DNA from: Escherichia phage MRostami-2023e
Sequence record: OQ031495
Strand: one strand, 5' to 3'
DNA length: 64,000 nucleotides
The notes beneath the pieces were generated by a model. It did not search any database. It was given only the letters and a program-made list of their open reading frames with translations, and was not told the origin of the DNA. Made by a program: the position numbers and the translations under genes. Positions 1 to 30,056 of the stretch are shown here, in pieces. Each line of letters begins with the position of its first letter. Within the stretch, counting starts at the first letter, position 1.

Positions 1-57
1 TAGAGCAACGGACTTCTAATCCGTAGGTTGAAGGTTAGAATCCTTCTGTCTCGACCA
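1..57 (+). tRNA. tRNA-Arg (anticodon UCU), 3' portion only; 5' end lies outside the window
   Basis: Anticodon stem-loop acgga/cttctaa/tccgt at 8-24 with TCT anticodon; T-arm gaagg/ttagaat/ccttc at 30-46; acceptor 3' strand plus encoded CCA at 47-57. Confidence 0.6.
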
Positions 58-4031: not shown

Positions 4032-4369
4032 CCGTATGGCCTTCTCTTGGTGAGAACATTCTAATTTTTATTATGAGTATTGGCATGGGATTTGCCTTTG
4101 GATTAGTTGGATTTCTTATTGACGGCGTTGTGTTAGGATTTATAGGGAACACTGGTGGATTCACAGACCAATGGCAGGACTTACGGTATACCCAAGCCTT
4201 TGCATCCATCGCATCCTTTTGTACTGTAGTCTATTTTTACTACGATTTTATAAACCGTAACAAGAAAAATAAAAAGGTTTACGCTTCTCAAATGGTTAGT
4301 TATAATGAACTCCTAGCTAGACGTGAAAATGAAACAATCGAAAACTTTATTAAGGAATGTAGAAAATGA
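4010..4369 (+). CDS. small membrane protein, paralog family (C-terminal ENFIKECRK)
   Basis: AAGGAG Shine-Dalgarno; hydrophobic N-terminal half; conserved C-terminal motif. Confidence 0.6.
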   Translation: MQKPQLLTVWPSLGENILIFIMSIGMGFAFGLVGFLIDGVVLGFIGNTGGFTDQWQDLRYTQAFASIASFCTVVYFYYDFINRNKKNKKVYASQMVSYNELLARRENETIENFIKECRK

Positions 4370-4671
4370 GTAAGATTATTGAAATTAAAGTACCAGAGTT
4401 TAATGATGCCAAATCCGCTTCAGACGCAATTTATAAACTTCTGAATCAAGCTGAACGTATCGAAGAAGAAGCAACAAAGATCGCAGACCAATATGCCGTA
4501 TCATTTTCTGTAGGTGATTATGGTAGCGGTCGTACTTATTATCCTAAGGGTGAAATCGTATCCCAGTGGATGAAAGATGAAATTGAAAATAATGGTGGCG
4601 ATGTTAAGCGTGAAGGTAATGGTTACGTTATTACTGAAGGTGCTTGGGTTTCGTCTTCTGCGTTGTGCTAA
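4366..4671 (+). CDS. hypothetical protein, first of three tandem paralogs (C-terminal GAWVSSSALC)
   Basis: ATGA overlap with upstream gene; shared C-terminal GWVSSSxxC motif. Confidence 0.6.
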   Translation: MSKIIEIKVPEFNDAKSASDAIYKLLNQAERIEEEATKIADQYAVSFSVGDYGSGRTYYPKGEIVSQWMKDEIENNGGDVKREGNGYVITEGAWVSSSALC

Positions 4672-4680
4672 GGAATCATT

Positions 4681-4953
4681 ATGTCTAAAGAACAAACCGA
4701 ACTGGCTGAAGCTGTAGCAAAAATCTATGCAGCTATTGAGGCTGCCAAAGAAATTGCTGATAAACAAAACACAACATTCAACTTGTACCCAGCTTATGGT
4801 ATGGGTGGAACCTATCATTCACCCGGACAGCTTAAAGCCGATCTTGAACGTTGTACAAAAAACGGCTATGCTGAATGGGCCGACGTTTACCAATACGACT
4901 ACAACCTGAGCCTCGAAACTGGTGGTTGGGTTGCATCTTCTCACACTTGCTAA
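4681..4953 (+). CDS. hypothetical protein, tandem paralog 2 (C-terminal GGWVASSHTC)
   Basis: Shared C-terminal motif and helical N-terminus. Confidence 0.6.
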   Translation: MSKEQTELAEAVAKIYAAIEAAKEIADKQNTTFNLYPAYGMGGTYHSPGQLKADLERCTKNGYAEWADVYQYDYNLSLETGGWVASSHTC

Positions 4954-4962
4954 GGAAACCAT

Positions 4963-5160
4963 ATGTCTCGTGAATTGGATTGTGCTGTACGTACGGCAGT
5001 AGCTGCTCTGGAAAACCTGTTCCAAATTGCAACAGAAGAACGCGAAGAAGTTACATTATGGATTGAAGATAACGCAGGTCTGAATCTCCAGGACGCGATC
5101 TCATTATCCCACAATAGTATCACTGTTCAAGGCTGGGTATCATCTAGTTATTCTTGCTAA
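4963..5160 (+). CDS. hypothetical protein, tandem paralog 3 (C-terminal QGWVSSSYSC)
   Basis: Shared C-terminal motif. Confidence 0.55.
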   Translation: MSRELDCAVRTAVAALENLFQIATEEREEVTLWIEDNAGLNLQDAISLSHNSITVQGWVSSSYSC

Positions 5161-5490: not shown

Positions 5491-6447
5491 ATGATGTTAG
5501 TTATTGGTTCTCGTGCACTTCACTATCACGGTCTTATTGATTCTAGCGCTATCAAAAATAGTGATTGGGACTTTATTGCGGACCAATGTTCTTGGAATGC
5601 ATTCAAAAATCAAATGATGGGTGTATATGTCCACCAAGATAACCCTGATGTCCAAGTTTTCAAATGCTTCCATAATGGACGCGAAACTCATTTTGAAGCA
5701 TATATTGTTCCGGCAATCACTAACGTTCGCGAACTAGTCGGTGAACTCACTCCTGAAGATTTCACGTCTTCTTATGACCTTTTAAAATACGCCAAGAAAA
5801 ATTTGACTAAAGACCGTTTGAACGGGTTTTACTGGGCAACTCCCGAGATATGTCTTGCAATTAAGATGTCTCATCGTTTCAAGAAAAATAATCCATTCTT
5901 TTTAAAGACTATGAACCATATTCAGTATCTTCGTGGTAAAGGTGTTACACTGAACGATGAACTTACTGAAATTATGCTGAAACGCCAGAAAGAAACCTTG
6001 AACTATGCTCACCCAGTTCTTGACACTTCTAAAAGTGCGTTCTTTAAAGATGACATCTATACATATGACCATGATACTATTCACGAAGCCATTGCGTTAA
6101 CAGGCCGCCCAGCGTATACATTTTATATGAAAGACGGTTCTGAAGTCATGACCTCACGTGAGAAGTTCGAATCGTTACCAGAAATGGTCAAATTGGCCGG
6201 TGTATATGAAGAATCATGTGTACTAGCATTAGAACGTTCTCAGATTCCTAATGACTTTAAAATTAACCCTGAAGCCAGTTTCATGATGGCATTAGAAAAA
6301 GTCTGCACAAGCATCACCTCCGGTTGGTTCCGTGAATACGCATACGAGAACTACAGCAAAGTTGTAAGTATGTATCATAAGCTCGGCAAAAATGATTACA
6401 TTAAACGGTTTAAAGAAAATTTTCATATGGTGAAACCTTTCAAATAA
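5491..6447 (+). CDS. hypothetical protein (318 aa), possible minimal nucleotidyltransferase fold
   Basis: N-terminal GS...(15 aa)...DWDF pattern resembles Pol-beta-type NTase hG[GS]/DxD motif; weak. Confidence 0.5.
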   Translation: MMLVIGSRALHYHGLIDSSAIKNSDWDFIADQCSWNAFKNQMMGVYVHQDNPDVQVFKCFHNGRETHFEAYIVPAITNVRELVGELTPEDFTSSYDLLKYAKKNLTKDRLNGFYWATPEICLAIKMSHRFKKNNPFFLKTMNHIQYLRGKGVTLNDELTEIMLKRQKETLNYAHPVLDTSKSAFFKDDIYTYDHDTIHEAIALTGRPAYTFYMKDGSEVMTSREKFESLPEMVKLAGVYEESCVLALERSQIPNDFKINPEASFMMALEKVCTSITSGWFREYAYENYSKVVSMYHKLGKNDYIKRFKENFHMVKPFK

Positions 6448-6728
6448 CTTCACAAAACTGTTTACANNNNNNNNNNNNNNNNNNNNNNNNNNNNNNNNNN
6501 NNNNNNNNNNNNNNNNNNNNNNNNNNNNNNNNNNNNNNNNNNNNNNNNNNNNNNNNNNNNNNNNNNNNNNNNNNNNNNNNNNNNNNNNNNNNNNNNNNNN
6601 NNNNNNNNNNNNNNNNNNNNNNNNNNNNNNNNNNNNNNNNNNNNNNNNNNNNNNNNNNNNNNNNNNNNNNNNNNNNNNNNNNNNNNNNNNNNNNNNNNNN
6701 NNNNNNNNNNNNNNNNNNNNNNNNNNNN

Positions 6729-10777: not shown

Positions 10778-11381
10778 NNNNNNNNNNNNNNNNNNNNNNN
10801 NNNNNNNNNNNNNNNNNNNNNNNNNNNNNNNNNNNNNNNNNNNNNNNNNNNNNNNNNNNNNNNNNNNNNNNNNNNNNNNNNNNNNNNNNNNNNNNNNNNN
10901 NNNNNNNNNNNNNNNNNNNNNNNNNNNNNNNNNNNNNNNNNNNNNNNNNNNNNNNNNNNNNNNNNNNNNNNNNNNNNNNNNNNNNNNNNNNNNNNNNNNN
11001 NNNNNNNNNNNNNNNNNNNNNNNNNNNNNNNNNNNNNNNNNNNNNNNNNNNNNNNNNNNNNNNNNNNNNNNNNNNNNNNNNNNNNNNNNNNNNNNNNNNN
11101 NNNNNNNNNNNNNNNNNNNNNNNNNNNNNNNNNNNNNNNNNNNNNNNNNNNNNNNNNNNNNNNNNNNNNNNNNNNNNNNNNNNNNNNNNNNNNNNNNNNN
11201 NNNNNNNNNNNNNNNNNTATTTACATTCAAATAACATGGGAACAACCTGGACCTCATGATTCTATGAGGGATTCCCGCCAACCTGTAATAAGGTCGAGCC
11301 CAAGTGCGGTAATGGGTTTACATAGCGAGTCGAAGGACCTAACATGTGCCACGGAATGGCCCAAACCTTAAGAGAAATAAT

Positions 11382-11921
11382 ATGAGAACATTTTTAACTG
11401 GACCTTATCTATCCCTGATGAATGCTTTTACACACCATTCTGATGCTAGAGTAGAAGAAATTTGTAAGAACGGATATGTCCCACCATTTGAAGACGTACT
11501 CAAGCAGTACTGTACACTTCGTTTAGACGGCGGCCGACAATCAGGTAAATCAATTGCTGTGACTAACTTTGCTGCTAATTGGCTGTATGATGGTGGAACG
11601 GTTATTGTTCTTTCTAATACTTCAGCTTATGCTAAAATTTCTGCTGGCAACATTGAAAAAGAATTTTCTCGTTATTCTAGCGACGATATTCGATTCCGTT
11701 TATTTACTGATTCTGTTCGTAGTTTTATTGGCAATGAAGGTTCTAAATTCCGTGGATTAACGCTTTCTCGTATTCTGTATATAATTGACGAGCCTATTAA
11801 AGCTCCTGATATGGATAAGATTTACAATGTCCATATTAAAACAGTACAGTACTGCTGTAAAAGCAAATATTGCATCGGCGGTAATGCTCGTCCTCAATTT
11901 TTTGTGATTGGAATGCAATGA
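11382..11921 (+). CDS. hypothetical P-loop protein (179 aa)
   Basis: Walker A-like GGRQSGKS. Confidence 0.5.
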   Translation: MRTFLTGPYLSLMNAFTHHSDARVEEICKNGYVPPFEDVLKQYCTLRLDGGRQSGKSIAVTNFAANWLYDGGTVIVLSNTSAYAKISAGNIEKEFSRYSSDDIRFRLFTDSVRSFIGNEGSKFRGLTLSRILYIIDEPIKAPDMDKIYNVHIKTVQYCCKSKYCIGGNARPQFFVIGMQ

Positions 11922-13075: not shown

Positions 13076-13293
13076 TGGCTNNNNNNNNNNNNNNNNNNNN
13101 NNNNNNNNNNNNNNNNNNNNNNNNNNNNNNNNNNNNNNNNNNNNNNNNNNNNNNNNNNNNNNNNNNNNNNNNNNNNNNNNNNNNNNNNNNNNNNNNNNNN
13201 NNNNNNNNNNNNNNNNNNNNNNNNNNNNNNNNNNNNNNNNNNNNNNNNNNNNNNNNNNNNNNNNNNNNNNNNNNNNNNNNNNATCAAAGAGTA

Positions 13294-15154: not shown

Positions 15155-15578
15155 NNNNNNNNNNNNNNNNNNNNNNNNNNNNNNNNNNNNNNNNNNNNNN
15201 NNNNNNNNNNNNNNNNNNNNNNNNNNNNNNNNNNNNNNNNNNNNNNNNNNNNNNNNNNNNNNNNNNNNNNNNNNNNNNNNNNNNNNNNNNNNNNNNNNNN
15301 NNNNNNNNNNNNNNNNNNNNNNNNNNNNNNNNNNNNNNNNNNNNNNNNNNNNNNNNNNNNNNNNNNNNNNNNNNNNNNNNNNNNNNNNNNNNNNNNNNNN
15401 NNNNNNNNNNNNNNNNATGGACTGTTTTTTTTACTTTATGTAACGATGAAATGATATGTGATTTTGATTATTGGTGTTATTGCTATTGATACAATAAAGG
15501 ATGTACAAATCATACAGGTGAAGGTTTCTATTCCGGGTTTCAACCGTATCCAGACTTTGTNNNNNNNNGTGAACCTAA

Positions 15579-17288: not shown

Positions 17289-17669
17289 NNNNNNNNNNNN
17301 NNNNNNNNNNNNNNNNNNNNNNNNNNNNNNNNNNNNNNNNNNNNNNNNNNNNNNNNNNNNNNNNNNNNNNNNNNNNNNNNNNNNNNNNNNNNNNNNNNNN
17401 NNNNNNNNNNNNNNNNNNNNNNNNNNNNNNNNNNNNNNNNNNNNNNNNNNNNNNNNNNNNNNNNNNNNNNNNNNNNNNNNNNNNNNNNNNNNNNNNNNNN
17501 NNNNNNNNNNNNNNNNNNNNNNNNNNNNNNNNNNNNNNNNNNNNNNNNNNNNNNNNNNNNNNNNNNNNNNNNNNNNNNNNNNNNNNNNNNNNNNNNNNNN
17601 NNNNNNNNNNNNNNNNNNNNNNNNNNNNCAAGTTGAAGAACTTTATCGACATTTAAAACACAATCGGTA

Positions 17670-18555: not shown

Positions 18556-19029
18556 ATGATTATCAATGAAAACTCTTGGCACTTTAAACTTTATGCAGCG
18601 TTCAATAGTACATGGAATCGCCCGAAAACATTATGTGCTTATTTTTGGAAAACGTTAATCCCAGTATTGGCTGTTTCAATTATTGGATTTGCGATTTTAG
18701 CAGCAGTCACAATTATTGGCCAGGAAATTTTAACTAGATTCTTTGTTTTTAGCAGTCTATGGACATTAGTTCCGGCCTCAATTGGCGTAGGCATTTTAAT
18801 GGTAGCAGTCATGGCTTTTATTTCTGTAGGGTTGGTAATTGGCCCGTCTTGGTTGTTAGACAAATATAACGACAGAAAATATTATAAAGAAATTGAGTTC
18901 ATTGCACAAAACCAAGAACGAATTAAAAATGGACTTGAACCTATTGAACGTAAGAAATCATTAATAGGTGAATACCTTAAAGCTCGTAAAGAAAAAGTCT
19001 GTCCTACTCTTGAATATAAGGCTAAATGA
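18556..19029 (+). CDS. membrane protein (157 aa)
   Basis: Three or four hydrophobic segments. Confidence 0.5.
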   Translation: MIINENSWHFKLYAAFNSTWNRPKTLCAYFWKTLIPVLAVSIIGFAILAAVTIIGQEILTRFFVFSSLWTLVPASIGVGILMVAVMAFISVGLVIGPSWLLDKYNDRKYYKEIEFIAQNQERIKNGLEPIERKKSLIGEYLKARKEKVCPTLEYKAK

Positions 19030-20015
19030 TGAAAACAATTATGAAAGGCTACTTTGGTAGTCACCTTTATGGAACGTCCACTCCTGAATCTGACGTCGAT
19101 TTTAAAGAAATTTATGTCCCTCATGCTCGTGATATCTTGACCGGTAACGTTAAAGAACACATGAGCAAGAACACGAATAACACATCTTCTAAGAACACAA
19201 AAGACGACGTGGACCATGAGTTGTATAGTCTCAAATATTTCTTTAAACTAGCTGCGGATGGTGAAACTGTCGCATTAGATATGCTTCACACTCCACCAAG
19301 CCTAGTAGTTAAATCTGATTTGCCTGATGTATGGAAGTATATTCAAGATAACAGGTCTCGTTTCTATACCACTAACATGAAATCTTATTTAGGGTATGTC
19401 CGTAAGCAAGCTTCTAAATACGGTGTCAAGGGTTCTCGACTGGCTATTCTTCGACAAGCCCTTAAACGTTCTAATGAATGGGGACAATACTTTGATAATG
19501 GTGCAGTAATTCGTTTATCACATATGAAGAATGTTCTGCCTGTAGGTGAATTTGCTTCGTGGGTTGAAACCGAAAACGAGAAAACAGGTAAGCAAACATT
19601 CTATAATCTGTTGGACCGTAAATTCCAAGACACGTTAACCAATAAAGAGTTCAATGCCATCCTGGTTAAACTGGAAGAGAACTACGGTGAACGTGCTCGT
19701 AAGGCAGAAGCTAACGAAGGTATTGACTGGAAAGCATTGAGTCATGCGTGTCGTGGTGGACTTCAATTATTGGAAATTTACAAAACCGGCGACCTGGTTT
19801 ACCCACTTCAGGATGCTCCATTTATTCTCGATGTTAAGCTTGGTAAACATACGTTTAAAACTGTACAAGAATTCCTAGAAGATATCGTTGACCAAGTTGA
19901 ACATGCATCGGAACAAGCCGCTAAGAACGGTATGCAACAAAAAGTAGATATGAGTTTCTGGGATGATTTCCTTGAGCAAGTCTATCTCGAAAATCATAAT
20001 TCTTACTATAAATAA
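19026..20015 (+). CDS. predicted nucleotidyltransferase (Pol-beta-like NTase fold) with helical C-terminal domain
   Basis: N-terminal YFGSHLYGTSTPESDVDF matches G[GS]x9-13DxD NTase signature. Confidence 0.55.
   Translation: MMKTIMKGYFGSHLYGTSTPESDVDFKEIYVPHARDILTGNVKEHMSKNTNNTSSKNTKDDVDHELYSLKYFFKLAADGETVALDMLHTPPSLVVKSDLPDVWKYIQDNRSRFYTTNMKSYLGYVRKQASKYGVKGSRLAILRQALKRSNEWGQYFDNGAVIRLSHMKNVLPVGEFASWVETENEKTGKQTFYNLLDRKFQDTLTNKEFNAILVKLEENYGERARKAEANEGIDWKALSHACRGGLQLLEIYKTGDLVYPLQDAPFILDVKLGKHTFKTVQEFLEDIVDQVEHASEQAAKNGMQQKVDMSFWDDFLEQVYLENHNSYYK
20007..20014 (+). promoter_or_regulatory. T4-type late promoter core TATAAATA
   Basis: Exact TATAAATA overlapping the upstream stop, about 33 nt before the 20047 start. 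Confidence 0.45.
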
Positions 20016-20046
20016 ATAGATAAATAACCATTAACTTGAGGTAAAT

Positions 20047-20325
20047 ATGAAAAAATTAGTAATTGGTTTATTCGCAGTAATGATGGCATTCTCTGTTGGT
20101 GCTACCACGGGTGCAGCCAGCGGTGCAGGAGCTGGTGGTAACCAGTCTTCTGGGCCTTCCAATGGTTCGGTAAATGCATCACATTCTCAAGGTATTGAGA
20201 ACATTAAATCAAGCTATATTAATAGCACGGCCGGACAAGCAACTGAAGCATGGTCAAAGGGTCGAGTAGTTACTCACTCCGTATTCTGTGATATGCCTAA
20301 TTATGTTGCTAAGTGCGATAAGTAA
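20047..20325 (+). CDS. secreted Gly/Ala/Ser-rich small protein
   Basis: Signal peptide MKKLVIGLFAVMMAFSVGA. Confidence 0.55.
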   Translation: MKKLVIGLFAVMMAFSVGATTGAASGAGAGGNQSSGPSNGSVNASHSQGIENIKSSYINSTAGQATEAWSKGRVVTHSVFCDMPNYVAKCDK

Positions 20326-20330
20326 ATGTG

Positions 20331-20350
20331 GGGACCTTCGGGTCCCTTTA
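20331..20350 (+). terminator. rho-independent terminator (UUCG tetraloop)
   Basis: gggacc-ttcg-ggtccc then ttta. Confidence 0.6.
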
Positions 20351-20376
20351 GGGGGTTAAAATATTTTTAAAAAGTA

Positions 20377-20408
20377 GTGTACATGCTTTTAGGATATGTT
20401 ATTATAGA
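20377..20408 (+). promoter_or_regulatory. early promoter candidate
   Basis: GTGTAC ... TGtTATTATag. Confidence 0.4.
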
Positions 20409-20443
20409 CCTATCGAAACGAAATGAGTAAATTGGAGAATAAA

Positions 20444-21424
20444 ATGTTCAACGTTCAAATCAAAAAAGGTATCTATCGTAATAACGAAATCTCTGGTTCT
20501 TATGTTGCCACAAAGACCTGGTTCCCAGCAAAGCTTAATCCTGAATGTTCCCACTTAGGTGACGGTAAAATTTTCGTTATGATTGATGGTTCTGAACGTG
20601 GAGTATGGGTCTTCAAATCAGACATCGTAATGGAAGGAGTTGAGACATCACCAGTTGCAGTTGTTGAAAGCACTGAAGATATGAAAACTCGTATCAACAA
20701 ACGCTTTAAAGTAATGAACATGATGACGAATGGCATTATCGATGGCAAAATTCGTTCACTCATTATTTCAGGTGCAGCCGGTATTGGTAAGACGTATTCT
20801 CTGGATAAAGCACTTAATAATGCTAATGATAATGGTTTCATCAAATACAAAAGCATTAATGGTAAAATCTCTGGTATTGGCCTTTACGAACAACTTTGGC
20901 TCAACCGTGATGCAGACAGCGTTCTCTTAATCGATGACGTTGACGTATTCTCAGATATGGACATCTTGAATCTTCTTAAAGCAGCATTAGATACTGGAGA
21001 TAAACGCAAAGTTTGTTGGAGCACTGCGTCATCTTATCTCGATGATAAGGGTATTGATAAAGAATTTGAGTTTGAAGGTACTATCGTTTTCATTACAAAC
21101 GTTGATATCGATAAAGAGTTAGAACGCGGTTCGAAACTTGCTCCACACCTTCAAGCTTTAGTATCTCGCTCAGTGTATCTCGACCTTGGAGTACACTCTA
21201 ATGAAGAGATTATGGTTCGAGTTGAAGATGTAATATTATCTACTGACATGATGCAGAAACGTGGTCTGACTGATGCAGAAACGTATAAAGCATTGTCCTG
21301 GATGAAGGCTAATGTATCTCGTCTTCGCAATGTATCATTACGTACCGCTCTTTATGTAGCAGATTTTATTTCAACTGATAAAGATGGTTGGGAGGAAATC
21401 TCTGAAGTAACTTTACTGAAATAA
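20444..21424 (+). CDS. AAA+/P-loop ATPase
   Basis: Walker A GAAGIGKT, Walker B VLLIDDVD. Confidence 0.65.
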   Translation: MFNVQIKKGIYRNNEISGSYVATKTWFPAKLNPECSHLGDGKIFVMIDGSERGVWVFKSDIVMEGVETSPVAVVESTEDMKTRINKRFKVMNMMTNGIIDGKIRSLIISGAAGIGKTYSLDKALNNANDNGFIKYKSINGKISGIGLYEQLWLNRDADSVLLIDDVDVFSDMDILNLLKAALDTGDKRKVCWSTASSYLDDKGIDKEFEFEGTIVFITNVDIDKELERGSKLAPHLQALVSRSVYLDLGVHSNEEIMVRVEDVILSTDMMQKRGLTDAETYKALSWMKANVSRLRNVSLRTALYVADFISTDKDGWEEISEVTLLK

Positions 21425-23549: not shown

Positions 23550-24485
23550 ATGGCTTTTATTACACGTAAAGAACTTATCAAAGAATTTACCTCGAACGCA
23601 TATACTCCAGGACCTAATCCTATCCGTATGCCTGTAAAGACTCCTGAAGAGATTGAGGAAGTCTGTTCATATTATGGGATTACTTCTCGTAAGTTTACTC
23701 AATTTGAATGCGTTACTAACACACCCGTTAAAGAGTTCATTAAAAATGGTGAGTTCAGCCGTTTATTAGCCAAACAGAAACTTCGTAATTTTTGTATTGG
23801 CGGTGAAGGACAATATTTCGCTAAGCAGTTCCGGAATAACCTTAACAATCTGATGGCCATTGCTTCTCGTATTCGTCCTCAAGCAATTAACATGAAACAT
23901 TTGAAATATACTTACGATAAGTTGGAAATCATGGTTATCAGTGAGAATGAGTTCACTCTTACGTATAAACCTAAGAATGATAACGTTGCTCGTGTATTTC
24001 ACCAAGCGTTGGAAGTTTTAGGTGATAATATCCACCAGATTAAAGCAATTTATTCACGTGAGCTTAATATTATCAACCCCATCAAGAATAAGGGTCATAT
24101 TGCTATCCAGGCTCGTGTATCTATTGGTAAAAAGGTTCCTGCGCCATGGTGGCACAAAGACTCTGAATACTATCAAAATCTTAAAAAGGAAAATGCATTG
24201 TTTGAAGCATCGCTTACTGGAACCCCAATTGAACAGGCCGAAGTCCTAAGTGCTTATTCTACTTCTNNNNNNNNNNNNNNNNNNNNNNNNNNNAAACTAA
24301 AAGTTTCTAATGACCTTCTTCCGGCCGAAGATTACCATTACAATCAAATCAAGGCCACTATGGACCAACTGTCTGTTGAACTTGACAAAGCACAAGCTAA
24401 GCTTCGTGATGCTCAAAGTGTTGTAACGAATCTCCAGTTGCAGTATTCTAAACTTTTTAACGCAATGAATGCATTAAAATCATAA
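23550..24485 (+). CDS. hypothetical protein (311 aa) with C-terminal coiled coil; contains 27-nt masked stretch
   Basis: ORF; C-terminal heptad-rich tail. Confidence 0.55.
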   Translation: MAFITRKELIKEFTSNAYTPGPNPIRMPVKTPEEIEEVCSYYGITSRKFTQFECVTNTPVKEFIKNGEFSRLLAKQKLRNFCIGGEGQYFAKQFRNNLNNLMAIASRIRPQAINMKHLKYTYDKLEIMVISENEFTLTYKPKNDNVARVFHQALEVLGDNIHQIKAIYSRELNIINPIKNKGHIAIQARVSIGKKVPAPWWHKDSEYYQNLKKENALFEASLTGTPIEQAEVLSAYSTSXXXXXXXXXKLKVSNDLLPAEDYHYNQIKATMDQLSVELDKAQAKLRDAQSVVTNLQLQYSKLFNAMNALKS

Positions 24486-27539: not shown

Positions 27540-27738
27540 NNNNNNNNNNNNNNNNNNNNNNNNNNNNNNNNNNNNNNNNNNNNNNNNNNNNNNNNNNNNN
27601 NNNNNNNNNNNNNNNNNNNNNNNNNNNNNNNNNNNNNNNNNNNNNNNNNNNNNNNNNNNNNNNNNNNNNNNNNNNNNNNNNNNNNNNNNNNNNNNNNNNN
27701 NNNNNNNNNNNNNNNNNNNNNNNNTTAAGTTAATAAAT

Positions 27739-28242: not shown

Positions 28243-30056
28243 AAATTGAAAAAGAAATTGAAGGATTAATTCATAAAACTAATAAAGACCTTTTAAACGA
28301 GAATGCTAATAAAGATTCTCGTGTTTTTCCAACTCAACGGGACCTTATGGCTGGTATTGTGTCTAAGCACATTGCCAAAAATATGGTCCCGTCTTTTATT
28401 ATGAATGCGCATGAAAGCGGAATCATTCACATGCATGATATTGATTATTCTCCTGCTCTTCCATTTACTAATTGCTGTTTAGTCGATTTAAAGGGGATGC
28501 TTGAGAATGGATTTAAATTAGGCAATGCTCAAATTGAAACGCCTAAATCTATTGGCGTTGCTACTGCAATTATGGCACAAATTACCGCACAAGTTGCTTC
28601 ACACCAATATGGCGGAACTACATTTGCGAATGTCGATAAAGTTCTTTCTCCTTATGTTAAACGCACATACGCTAAACATATTGAGGACGCAGAAAAATGG
28701 CAAATCGCTGATGCGTTGAATTATGCCCAATCTAAAACAGAAAAAGACGTATACGATGCATTCCAAGCTTATGAATATGAAGTAAATACTCTCTTTAGTT
28801 CAAACGGACAGACTCCTTTTGTAACAATTACATTTGGTACAGGAACCGACTGGACTGAACGAATGATTCAGAAAGCAATTCTTAAAAACCGCATTAAAGG
28901 CCTTGGTCGTGATGGAATAACTCCTATTTTCCCTAAGCTTGTTATGTTCGTTGAAGAAGGTGTTAATCTTTATAAAGACGATCCGAACTATGATATTAAG
29001 CAGCTTGCTTTAGAATGTGCAAGCAAAAGAATGTATCCTGACATCATTTCGGCTAAGAACAATAAAGCTATCACCGGCTCATCTATTCCTGTTTCTCCAA
29101 TGGGTTGCCGTAGTTTCTTGAGCGTATGGAAAGATTCAACTGGCAATGAAATTCTTGATGGACGCAATAATCTTGGCGTTGTAACACTGAATCTTCCTCG
29201 TATTGCGTTAGATTCTTATATTGGAACACAATTCAATGAACAGAAATTTGCCGAATTGTTCAATGAACGAATGGACCTGTGTTTTGAAGCTTTGATGTGT
29301 AGAATTAGTTCCTTAAAAGGAGTTAAAGCGACTGTTGCTCCTATTCTTTACCAAGAAGGTGCATTTGGGGTTCGTCTTAAACCTGACGACGATATAATTG
29401 AGTTATTTAAAAACGGTAGAAGTTCAGTGTCTTTAGGATACATCGGTATTCATGAATTGAATATTCTTGTCGGCCGTGATATTGGACAAGAAATTTTAAC
29501 TAAAATGAATGCTCATCTTAAACAGTGGACTGAAAGAACCGGTTTTGCTTTTAGCTTGTATTCTACTCCTGCTGAAAACCTGTGCTATCGCTTCTGTAAA
29601 CTTGATACTGAAAAATATGGAAGTGTAAAAGATGTTACTGATAAAGGCTGGTACACTAACAGTTTCCATGTTTCAGTAGAAGAAAATATTACTCCGTTTG
29701 AAAAGATTTATCGCGAAGCCCCATATCATTTCATTTCGNNNNNNNNNNNNNNNNNNNNNNNNNNNNNNNNNNNNNNNNNNNNNNNNNNNNNNNNNNNNNN
29801 NNNNNNNNNNNNNNNNNNNNNNNNNNNNNNNNNNNNNNNNNNNNNNNNNNNNNNNNNNNNNNNNNNNNNNNNNNNNNNNNNNNNNNNNNNNNNNNNNNNN
29901 NNNNNNNNNNNATTTGTTTGTTCTATGTGTGGAGAAACTGATCCTAAAAAGATGAACACAATAAGAAGAACGTGTGGTTATCTTGGAAACCCGAACGAAC
30001 GCGGATTTAATCTAGGCAAAAATAAAGAAATCATGCATAGGGTTAAACACCAATGA
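28239..30056 (+). CDS. nrdD: anaerobic ribonucleoside-triphosphate reductase NrdD (glycyl-radical region masked)
   Basis: 605 aa as T4 NrdD; C-terminal Zn/Cys cluster CSMCGE...RRTCGYLG; continuous ORF, no intron. Confidence 0.9.
   Translation: MKIEKEIEGLIHKTNKDLLNENANKDSRVFPTQRDLMAGIVSKHIAKNMVPSFIMNAHESGIIHMHDIDYSPALPFTNCCLVDLKGMLENGFKLGNAQIETPKSIGVATAIMAQITAQVASHQYGGTTFANVDKVLSPYVKRTYAKHIEDAEKWQIADALNYAQSKTEKDVYDAFQAYEYEVNTLFSSNGQTPFVTITFGTGTDWTERMIQKAILKNRIKGLGRDGITPIFPKLVMFVEEGVNLYKDDPNYDIKQLALECASKRMYPDIISAKNNKAITGSSIPVSPMGCRSFLSVWKDSTGNEILDGRNNLGVVTLNLPRIALDSYIGTQFNEQKFAELFNERMDLCFEALMCRISSLKGVKATVAPILYQEGAFGVRLKPDDDIIELFKNGRSSVSLGYIGIHELNILVGRDIGQEILTKMNAHLKQWTERTGFAFSLYSTPAENLCYRFCKLDTEKYGSVKDVTDKGWYTNSFHVSVEENITPFEKIYREAPYHFISXXXXXXXXXXXXXXXXXXXXXXXXXXXXXXXXXXXXXXXXXXXXXXXXXXXXXXXXXXFVCSMCGETDPKKMNTIRRTCGYLGNPNERGFNLGKNKEIMHRVKHQ

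Follow-up and report, generated by a model that had tools for sequence, protein, structure and literature searches.

The stretch of DNA analyzed here (the window) comprises 64,000 nucleotides of Escherichia phage MRostami-2023e (sequence record OQ031495). At positions 19026-20015, on the + strand, it carries a gene for a 329-amino-acid (aa) protein that is almost certainly a nucleotidyltransferase (NTase) of the RlaP family (PF10127) and that is orthologous to NrdC.11 of phage T4. On balance we favor an overall explanation in which this NrdC.11 ortholog, a member of one branch of the RlaP family, fills RNA 3′ ends, and in which the genes that adjoin it are no part of a system with it. By analogy with the relatives described below, the enzyme would most likely act as an accessory in the phage's tRNA repair, the best supported among the roles that an initial annotation of this DNA had listed for it.

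That annotation singled out four open reading frames (ORFs), all of which are present on the + strand together with their motifs, at 19026-20015, 20047-20325, 20423-21424 and 5491-6447; PADLOC and NCBIfam searches gave no meaningful match for any of the four proteins. For the 329-aa protein, the Pfam RlaP profile matches residues 7-152 at 49 bits (gathering score 23; E = 8.4e-13), PF10127 is precomputed for 120 of 120 close homologs, and PHROG 388, 'nucleotidyltransferase', matches as well. The protein is 78% identical to T4 NrdC.11 (NP_049709) over its full length, and 3214 relatives at E ≤ 0.001 were recovered from among 1.84 billion cluster representatives. It begins MMKTIMKGYFGSHLYGTSTPESDVDF, a segment that holds both G11-S12 and D23-V24-D25; a second ATG, at 19029, is the annotated start in many homologs (328 aa). 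The pattern G[GS]-x8-14-D-x-[DE] occurs in 6 ORFs of the window versus 4.2 expected from shuffles, which is chance level. The case for an NTase therefore rests on the profile match, on residue invariance and on fold matches rather than on the bare GS...DxD motif.

Across 76 homologs (34-52% identity), G11, S12, G16, S22, D23, D25, N57, D63, Y132, K236, R243 and G273 are invariant, and H240 is nearly so. The catalytic codons, for G11-S12 (19056-19061), D23 and D25 (19092-19100) and the third carboxylate, D63 (19212-19214), fall in an N-terminal NTase domain spanning residues 1 to ~115 (19026-19370, + strand). Residues 119-329 (19380-20012, + strand) form a helical domain with a variable beta insert at ~160-205; Y132, K236, H240, R243 and G273 probably line the substrate cleft. 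The AlphaFold2 model built on the 76-homolog alignment (predicted local distance difference test [pLDDT] 94.1; predicted template modeling score [pTM] 0.85) has an N-terminal alpha/beta domain ordered strand-GS-helix-strand(DxD), with D63 on a later strand, followed by helices from ~119 to 328 that include a small beta insert (177-201) and end in a terminal helix (309-328). The top matches of this model in a Foldseek comparison with the PDB are KNTase/ANT(4′), the NTase-like protein 3c18 and Hailong HalB (E ~3e-3, probability 0.99); PDB searches by sequence, whether with the individual proteins or with profiles of the families, gave no useful match. In hhalign, the NTase core of the NrdC.11 type aligns with that of canonical RlaP paralogs (86 columns; probability 92.7%, E = 4e-7), and the alignment pairs D63 with an invariant Asp of those paralogs. 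The PF10127 match, the invariance across 76 homologs, the model and the fold matches together bear out the initial description of this protein as a Pol-beta-type NTase with a helical C-terminal domain.

The gene is in itself ordinary and largely known, being the ortholog of an already annotated T4 gene in a family that is now being characterized. NrdC.11 is named 'nucleotidyltransferase' in both the T4 RefSeq record (NC_000866) and the GenBank record of Escherichia phage vB_EQ1; in 2006 Nolan et al. linked nrdC.11 with COG3541 and recognized an AAA motif for nrdC.10 (PMC1524935); and a December 2025 preprint places T4 NrdC.11 in cluster 5 of the RlaP sequence similarity network (SSN), a separate cluster within the family (PMC12776372). 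The initial statement that none of the candidate roles is assigned in T4 is therefore not upheld.

According to the same preprint, two Pseudomonas RlaPs (PfRlaP and PaRlaP) attach one or two nucleoside monophosphates (NMPs) to RNA 3′-OH ends, prefer nicked-tRNA mimics and Mn2+, and accept any nucleoside triphosphate (NTP) and also dATP; DNA and proteins are not substrates of the assayed enzymes, and E. coli proteins were left unlabeled (PMC12776372). RlaP leaves a 3′-OH that 5′-P ligases can use, and when a tRNA mimic lacking one anticodon-loop nucleotide was treated with RlaP before ligation, aminoacylation was partly regained (PMC12776372). In the PfRlaP crystal structure, an N-terminal NTase domain is joined to a helical C-terminal domain whose final helix packs back on the NTase domain (PMC12776372). 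RlaP has been predicted to replace nucleotides removed by RloC-type nucleases (PMC7824862), and RloC's removal of the wobble nucleotide has been proposed as a means to defeat T4 repair (PMC2610378). The nucleotide-filling idea itself was put forward previously, by Burroughs & Aravind, and appears again in the 2025 preprint (PMC12776372).

PfRlaP and PaRlaP, which belong to RtcB-RtcA operons, share with the 329-aa NTase a Pol-beta core that holds GS, DxD and a third Asp, a helical C-terminal domain and the association of relatives with RNA ligases. Canonical RlaPs differ in that only the N-terminal ~90-125 residues align, and the 329-aa NTase exceeds the ~270-aa canonical paralog by ~60 residues. 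The 329-aa NTase belongs to the NrdC.11-type phage/bacterial branch of RlaP, and by analogy with the Pseudomonas enzymes it probably extends RNA 3′ ends.

Relatives of the NTase occur in RNA-repair gene clusters, and it is to neighbors such as RNA ligases and other RNA-repair genes that the RlaP family owes its name. We surveyed NTase relatives at 80 viral and as many bacterial loci, in which ORFs were called and clustered and recurrent neighbors annotated; 33 of the viral loci are close and 46 distant, the bacterial homologs are 33-52% identical, many contigs are short, and bacterial counts refer to 70 loci. A gene for Pnkp-ligase (PF16542), Hen1, RtcB or Ro60 lies within five ORFs of the NTase homolog at 14 of the 70 bacterial loci, in Hen1-Pnkp or Ro60-RtcB operons. 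At 20 of the 70, inside operons of these kinds, a shorter canonical RlaP paralog (~270 aa; ESGSRAWGF...SDYDVRF) is encoded immediately downstream of the NrdC.11-type gene, an arrangement which suggests that the two types act as a pair in bacteria; examples of the tandem are found at L210 (6001-7802) and L190 (6004-7746), among the bacterial loci numbered L173-L247. T4-like phages carry the NrdC.11 type only, and the 86 records with canonical paralogs in the phage collection are all from jumbo phages, with none from T4-like phages. On phage contig L084, genes for an HD-phosphatase/kinase (PF01966 + AAA_33) and an Rnl1-type ligase (PF09511) precede the NTase gene; L082 has Pnkp-like and Rnl1-like tblastn matches in the same order, and Pnkp- or Rnl1-like genes lie within 10 kb of the NTase in L054, L058, L062, L064, L072 and L073. 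In vB_EQ1, polynucleotide kinase and Rnl1 are encoded too, though far from the NTase; a 3′-OH of the kind RlaP leaves can be used by such 5′-P ligases.

These neighbors also bear on the possibility that the enzyme works in tRNA 3′-end (CCA) repair or maturation, in which it would rebuild the trimmed CCA termini of tRNAs, whether from host or phage, and not anticodon-loop breaks. Such a role would accord with the labeling of full-length tRNA-sized RNAs, and of any 3′-OH RNA end, by the assayed RlaPs (PMC12776372), with the use of CCA-adding Pol-beta NTases by other phages (PMC7824862) and with the phage tRNA cluster in which the window opens. Ligase, kinase and Hen1 genes near the relatives, however, indicate internal breaks rather than CCA ends, and the CCA/PAP families of Pfam do not match the 329-aa protein. 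Some T4 tRNAs need the host's cca gene, which we likewise count against a CCA role. Further, RlaP halts after 1-2 nucleotides with little NTP specificity, unlike CCA enzymes (PMC12776372), and we regard this alternative as improbable.

The fold matches invite two other readings. In the first, the NTase would nucleotidylylate a protein or small molecule in the manner of MNT antitoxins, KNTase or ANT, for example by AMPylating, and so neutralizing, a host HEPN RNase toxin. The matches to KNTase/ANT(4′) fit this idea, as do further fold matches to LinB, MNT and HEPN-domain proteins and a faint NCBIfam MntA match across the GS motif (E = 0.077). What these folds have in common, however, is an NTase core plus a helical bundle, and the MntA match is far under its cut-off (12.9 versus 60 bits). 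Because the relatives' gene context is one of RNA repair and RlaPs left E. coli proteins unlabeled (PMC12776372), nucleotidylylation seems to us quite improbable.

In the second, the NTase would be a HalB-like polymerase that makes oligo(deoxy)nucleotides independently of a template, possibly from a protein primer, as a signal or decoy; it might, for instance, refill the oligo-dA that holds the host Hailong HalA channel shut. HalB (PDB 9dbh) is a 217-aa, Tyr-primed maker of poly-dA whose gene shares a two-gene operon with the HalA channel. Directly upstream of the NTase gene lies a gene for a 157-aa multi-pass membrane protein (18556-19029, + strand; phrog_944, 'membrane protein'), whose stop codon overlaps the NTase start (ATGATGA, 19026-19032) and which is the most frequent close neighbor, at 28 of the 33 close viral loci. 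HalB is nevertheless only 16% identical to the 329-aa NTase, a structural likeness with no sequence-profile link, and it is not reached by the NTase family profile in the PDB even at E ≤ 10. PADLOC finds nothing for either the NTase or the membrane protein; the latter also has no Pfam match and no homolog in the T4 regions compared (record positions 40-75 kb and 128-155 kb, the syntenic region included). RNA-repair genes, not channel genes, adjoin the bacterial relatives, and the assayed RlaPs do not extend DNA (PMC12776372). A HalB-like activity is accordingly highly improbable in our estimation. A phage Hailong-like pair of membrane protein and NTase was also considered: PADLOC and Pfam lend it no support and the pairing is kept in neither T4 nor bacteria, so that it stands as a low-probability rival only.

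For the RNA 3′-end filling that we prefer, the biochemistry of the two bacterial RlaPs suggests a chemistry in which D23, D25 and D63 would hold two metal ions, and one or two untemplated NMPs would pass from NTP to the 3′-OH of a broken RNA. During infection, a host anticodon nuclease of the RloC type would cleave a tRNA and trim off one nucleotide; phage Pnkp would then turn the ends into 3′-OH and 5′-P, the NTase would restore the nucleotide, and phage Rnl1 would seal the tRNA, so that some functional tRNA, and hence translation, might be rescued. That the role is specifically anti-RloC is a tentative suggestion. T4 tolerates deletion of the nrdC.11-mobD.3 block (PMC9825161), and such dispensability in the laboratory is what would be expected of a counter-defense accessory. 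A 159.7-kb T4 variant (among records OL964745.1, HE978309.1 and PQ351812.1) keeps only the final 39 codons of nrdC.11, and in phages GEC-3S and SFHK24 the NTase match is split into two pieces with 67% covered; these partial copies are consistent with a dispensable, sometimes decaying gene.

Several observations weigh against this proposal. The RlaPs that were assayed belong to a different SSN cluster from the NrdC.11 type, the alignment between them is N-terminal only (Pfam positions 23-148 of 249, and the 86 hhalign columns), and the C-terminal domain of NrdC.11, which should govern substrate choice, differs from theirs. The top structural match is HalB, a DNA-synthesizing NTase. Repair neighbors are present at only 14/70 bacterial and ~8/46 distant viral loci, where many contigs are short, and pseT and rnlA lie ~80 kb from the NTase gene both here and in T4, so that local linkage is absent. 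Lastly, untemplated addition would usually insert a wrong or unmodified base, which makes the benefit in vivo uncertain.

T4 NrdC.11 resembles the 329-aa NTase in its catalytic residues and in its site between mobD.1 and nrdC.10. The two differ in the insert at residues ~150-215, with two indels, and in their surroundings: T4 has mobD, a homing-endonuclease gene, at the position of the membrane-protein gene, and no 92-aa gene downstream. In the window phage, that downstream gene (20047-20325, + strand) encodes a 92-aa predicted secreted protein, rich in Gly, Ala and Ser and with two C-terminal Cys, which begins with MKK and a hydrophobic stretch (Kyte-Doolittle 2.4 over residues 5-16). It belongs to phrog_2243, of unassigned function. 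The 102 phage records that contain it are without exception Escherichia, Shigella or Mosigvirus-type, and it is present at 2 of the 80 viral NTase loci. The T4 regions compared hold no homolog, and the corresponding site is a 115-bp gap; an alignment places the inserted 92-aa gene exactly at the boundary between the stop codon of the NTase and a conserved stem-loop.

This stem-loop (GGGGACC-UUCG-GGUCCCU, then U-rich; 20330-20347 onward, + strand) is the first part of a composite element of the promoter-early/stem-loop (PeSL) type (20330-20405, + strand), the second being an early-promoter-like sequence, TGTACA-N16-TATTAT, located by a promoter scan at 20378-20405 on the + strand. The hairpin alone is unexceptional (minimum free energy -12.9 kcal/mol, z = -0.8); the stem-loop/promoter sequence is kept in T4 and in locus L006, with the GGAG ribosome-binding site of NrdC.10 next. 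PeSL cassettes, whose promoter is described as TTTACW-N17-TAYWAT, mediate the shuffling of ORFans in T4-like genomes (PMC4122927), and the arrangement of stem-loop and promoter here matches them. At the same spot L006 (~11000-11400) carries an unrelated ~80-aa gene and a duplicated promoter, and L049 has the 92-aa gene (11286-11552) and lacks NrdC.10. We conclude that the 92-aa gene is a mobile ORFan cassette at a stem-loop/promoter recombination hotspot and no functional partner of the NTase.

Beyond the PeSL element, which divides the NTase and 92-aa unit from the next, lies the gene for an orphan AAA+/STAND-like P-loop ATPase, the NrdC.10 ortholog (20444-21424, + strand; the 333-aa ORF opens at 20423), whose product is 78% identical to T4 NrdC.10. 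The first ATG of the ORF (20423-20443) is just past the predicted -10 box; 20444 is the likely true start, as judged from the length of most homologs (326 aa), the GGAG ribosome-binding site and the conserved GGAGAATAAAATG. Walker A (GAAGIGKT, G110-T117) and Walker B (LLIDDVD, D164-D165) are invariant in 40 homologs, as are N219, R242, R295 and R300, which are candidates for sensor 1, the arginine finger and sensor 2. No curated AAA profile reaches its gathering score for NrdC.10 (best AAA_22, 22 bits versus 27); sub-threshold AAA_22 or AAA_16 matches are present in 36 of the 40 family members, and a C-terminal HTH_37 match in 6. The protein, which falls in phrog_1250 (function unassigned), has an N-terminal domain of ~85 aa and possibly a C-terminal helix-turn-helix (HTH). 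It resembles Cdc6/ORC and AAA_22/TniB-like AAA+ initiators and loaders in its Walker motifs, a weak P-loop profile match (Cdc6, E = 0.08) and the possible C-terminal HTH, and differs from them in its unique N-terminal domain, its sub-gathering Pfam AAA scores and its phage-only family, which comprises 386 database clusters confined to T4-like and some jumbo phages.

The initial annotation had implied that the NTase, the secreted protein and the ATPase belong together. Its readings of the middle gene as encoding a signal-peptide protein and of the third protein as a P-loop/AAA+-like ATPase agree with the sequence features above; its grouping of the three, like its statement on T4, does not stand. 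A single functional module of these genes would be suggested by their adjacency on the same strand and their joint conservation in Mosigvirus-type genomes. Within 10 kb downstream of the NTase, however, NrdC.10 is found at only 28 of the 80 viral loci, separated from it by between 115 bp and 2.3 kb. No bacterial locus has NrdC.10, nearly every relative under 57% identity is without it, and so are the close relatives L011, L014 and L049; in Aeromonas phage 60AhydR15PP the two genes are 59 kb apart. The stem-loop and promoter separate the units, and other phages hold different inserts there. Co-occurrence across the 80 viral and 70 bacterial loci thus led us to reject a three-gene system, in view of the counts for NrdC.10 (28/80) and the 92-aa gene (2/80, and not in T4) and of NrdC.10's own promoter. 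We attach almost no probability to a common module: the adjacency is synteny, and NrdC.10 is a separately promoted orphan AAA+-like ATPase.

The window derives from a Mosigvirus-like relative of T4. The 5.5 kb around the NTase gene share 99.9% identity with vB_EQ1 and ~98% with phages of the Mosigvirus type, for example mogra, and the genes run tk - rI - mobD.1-like - [membrane protein] - NTase - [92 aa] - ATPase - nrdC.9/.8-like ... nrdC - pin - 49 - nrdD, which is the order of the T4 nrdC-tk region reversed. A tRNA gene cut at its 5′ end opens the window (1-54; Rfam tRNA, 44 bits). Ten runs of masked N occur, at 1799-1827, 6467-6728, 10778-11217, 13081-13282, 15155-15416, 15561-15568, 17289-17628, 24267-24293, 27540-27724 and 29739-29911, one of them directly downstream of the gene at 5491 and another upstream of the NTase gene. 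In GenBank, many homologs of NrdC.11, NrdC.10 and other nrdC.x products are labeled 'thioredoxin', an error that has spread from the gene-name prefix nrdC; Pfam finds no thioredoxin domain in the mislabeled proteins.

The window encodes a second NTase-fold enzyme, unrelated to RlaP in sequence. The 318-aa protein at 5491-6447 (+ strand), which begins MMLVIGSRAL...SDWDF, matches two Pfam families: DUF7277, which is a minimal NTase domain, and DUF7275, a helical domain that is conserved. G6, S7, D25, D27 and E69 are invariant across 48 homologs (47-76% identity), and the invariant residues of DUF7275 include K125, H128, H174, D193, H194, D195, H198, E240, E241 and E248. The AlphaFold2 model (pLDDT 91.5) has a MenT-like NTase fold that includes GS, DxD and a third acidic residue and is nearest to the tRNA NTase toxins of the MenT type and to small antibiotic NTases such as ANT(2′′), at 7-11% identity to MenT1 (8an4), TglT (6j7n), MenT4 (6y56) and ANT(2′′) (4xje). 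The weaker NTase-like pattern first seen in this protein is thus matched by fold and by an invariant GS/DxD/E set, and structure prediction, which had been proposed as a check, returned an NTase fold with conserved catalytic carboxylates for both proteins. We rejected a reading of the 5491 family as divergent RlaPs; hhalign against both RlaP groups aligned GS...DxD only, at a probability of 0.7-2%.

The 5491 protein differs from MenT and AbiEii in having its own strongly conserved 190-residue DUF7275 and in being encoded in a hyperplastic region of a phage genome with no adjacent antitoxin-like gene. None of the 48 family members matches AbiEii at E ≤ 1, DUF7277 and DUF7275 being the only matches, and the neighbors include no gene of the AbiEi/MenA type; they are small phage ORFans without a Pfam family, and NudE. 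The family is present in 733 phage records from several phage groups, a few of them already labeled 'putative nucleotidyltransferase', and is absent from the T4 regions compared; we found no mention of DUF7277 or DUF7275 in the literature searched. Three tandem small paralogs (101, 90 and 65 aa; 4366-4671, 4681-4953 and 4963-5160, + strand) share C-termini of the form W-[VI]-[SA]-S-S-x-x-C, and this family, which has no Pfam entry, lies two ORFs upstream of the DUF7277/DUF7275 gene at 45 of 80 related viral loci.

The resemblance to MenT makes an RNA 3′ end a reasonable guess for the substrate of the 5491 protein. We consider it doubtful that the family consists of phage RNA/tRNA 3′-end NTases, acting either offensively, on host tRNA ends during takeover, or in a second, RlaP-independent repair of RNA ends; under this reading, the invariant His/Asp-rich DUF7275 could add a second, possibly metal-dependent, activity. 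Were it correct, RNA-end NTases of two unrelated kinds would be present in many T4-like phages, though not in the T4 regions compared. DUF7277/DUF7275 is in any case a genuine NTase family and could be renamed.

What is new here is modest: the occurrence of the NrdC.11 branch in repair operons and in tandem with a paralog, the PeSL account of the secreted-protein gene, and the fold-level evidence on DUF7277/DUF7275. To the question of RNA filling the window contributes one ortholog, together with supporting gene-context evidence for the NrdC.11 branch. If NrdC.11 does fill RNA 3′ ends, the 'healing and sealing' of tRNA by T4 would gain a third, 'filling' step, and filling could reverse the damage that RloC and other anticodon nucleases do by excising a nucleotide, a question that dates from 2008.

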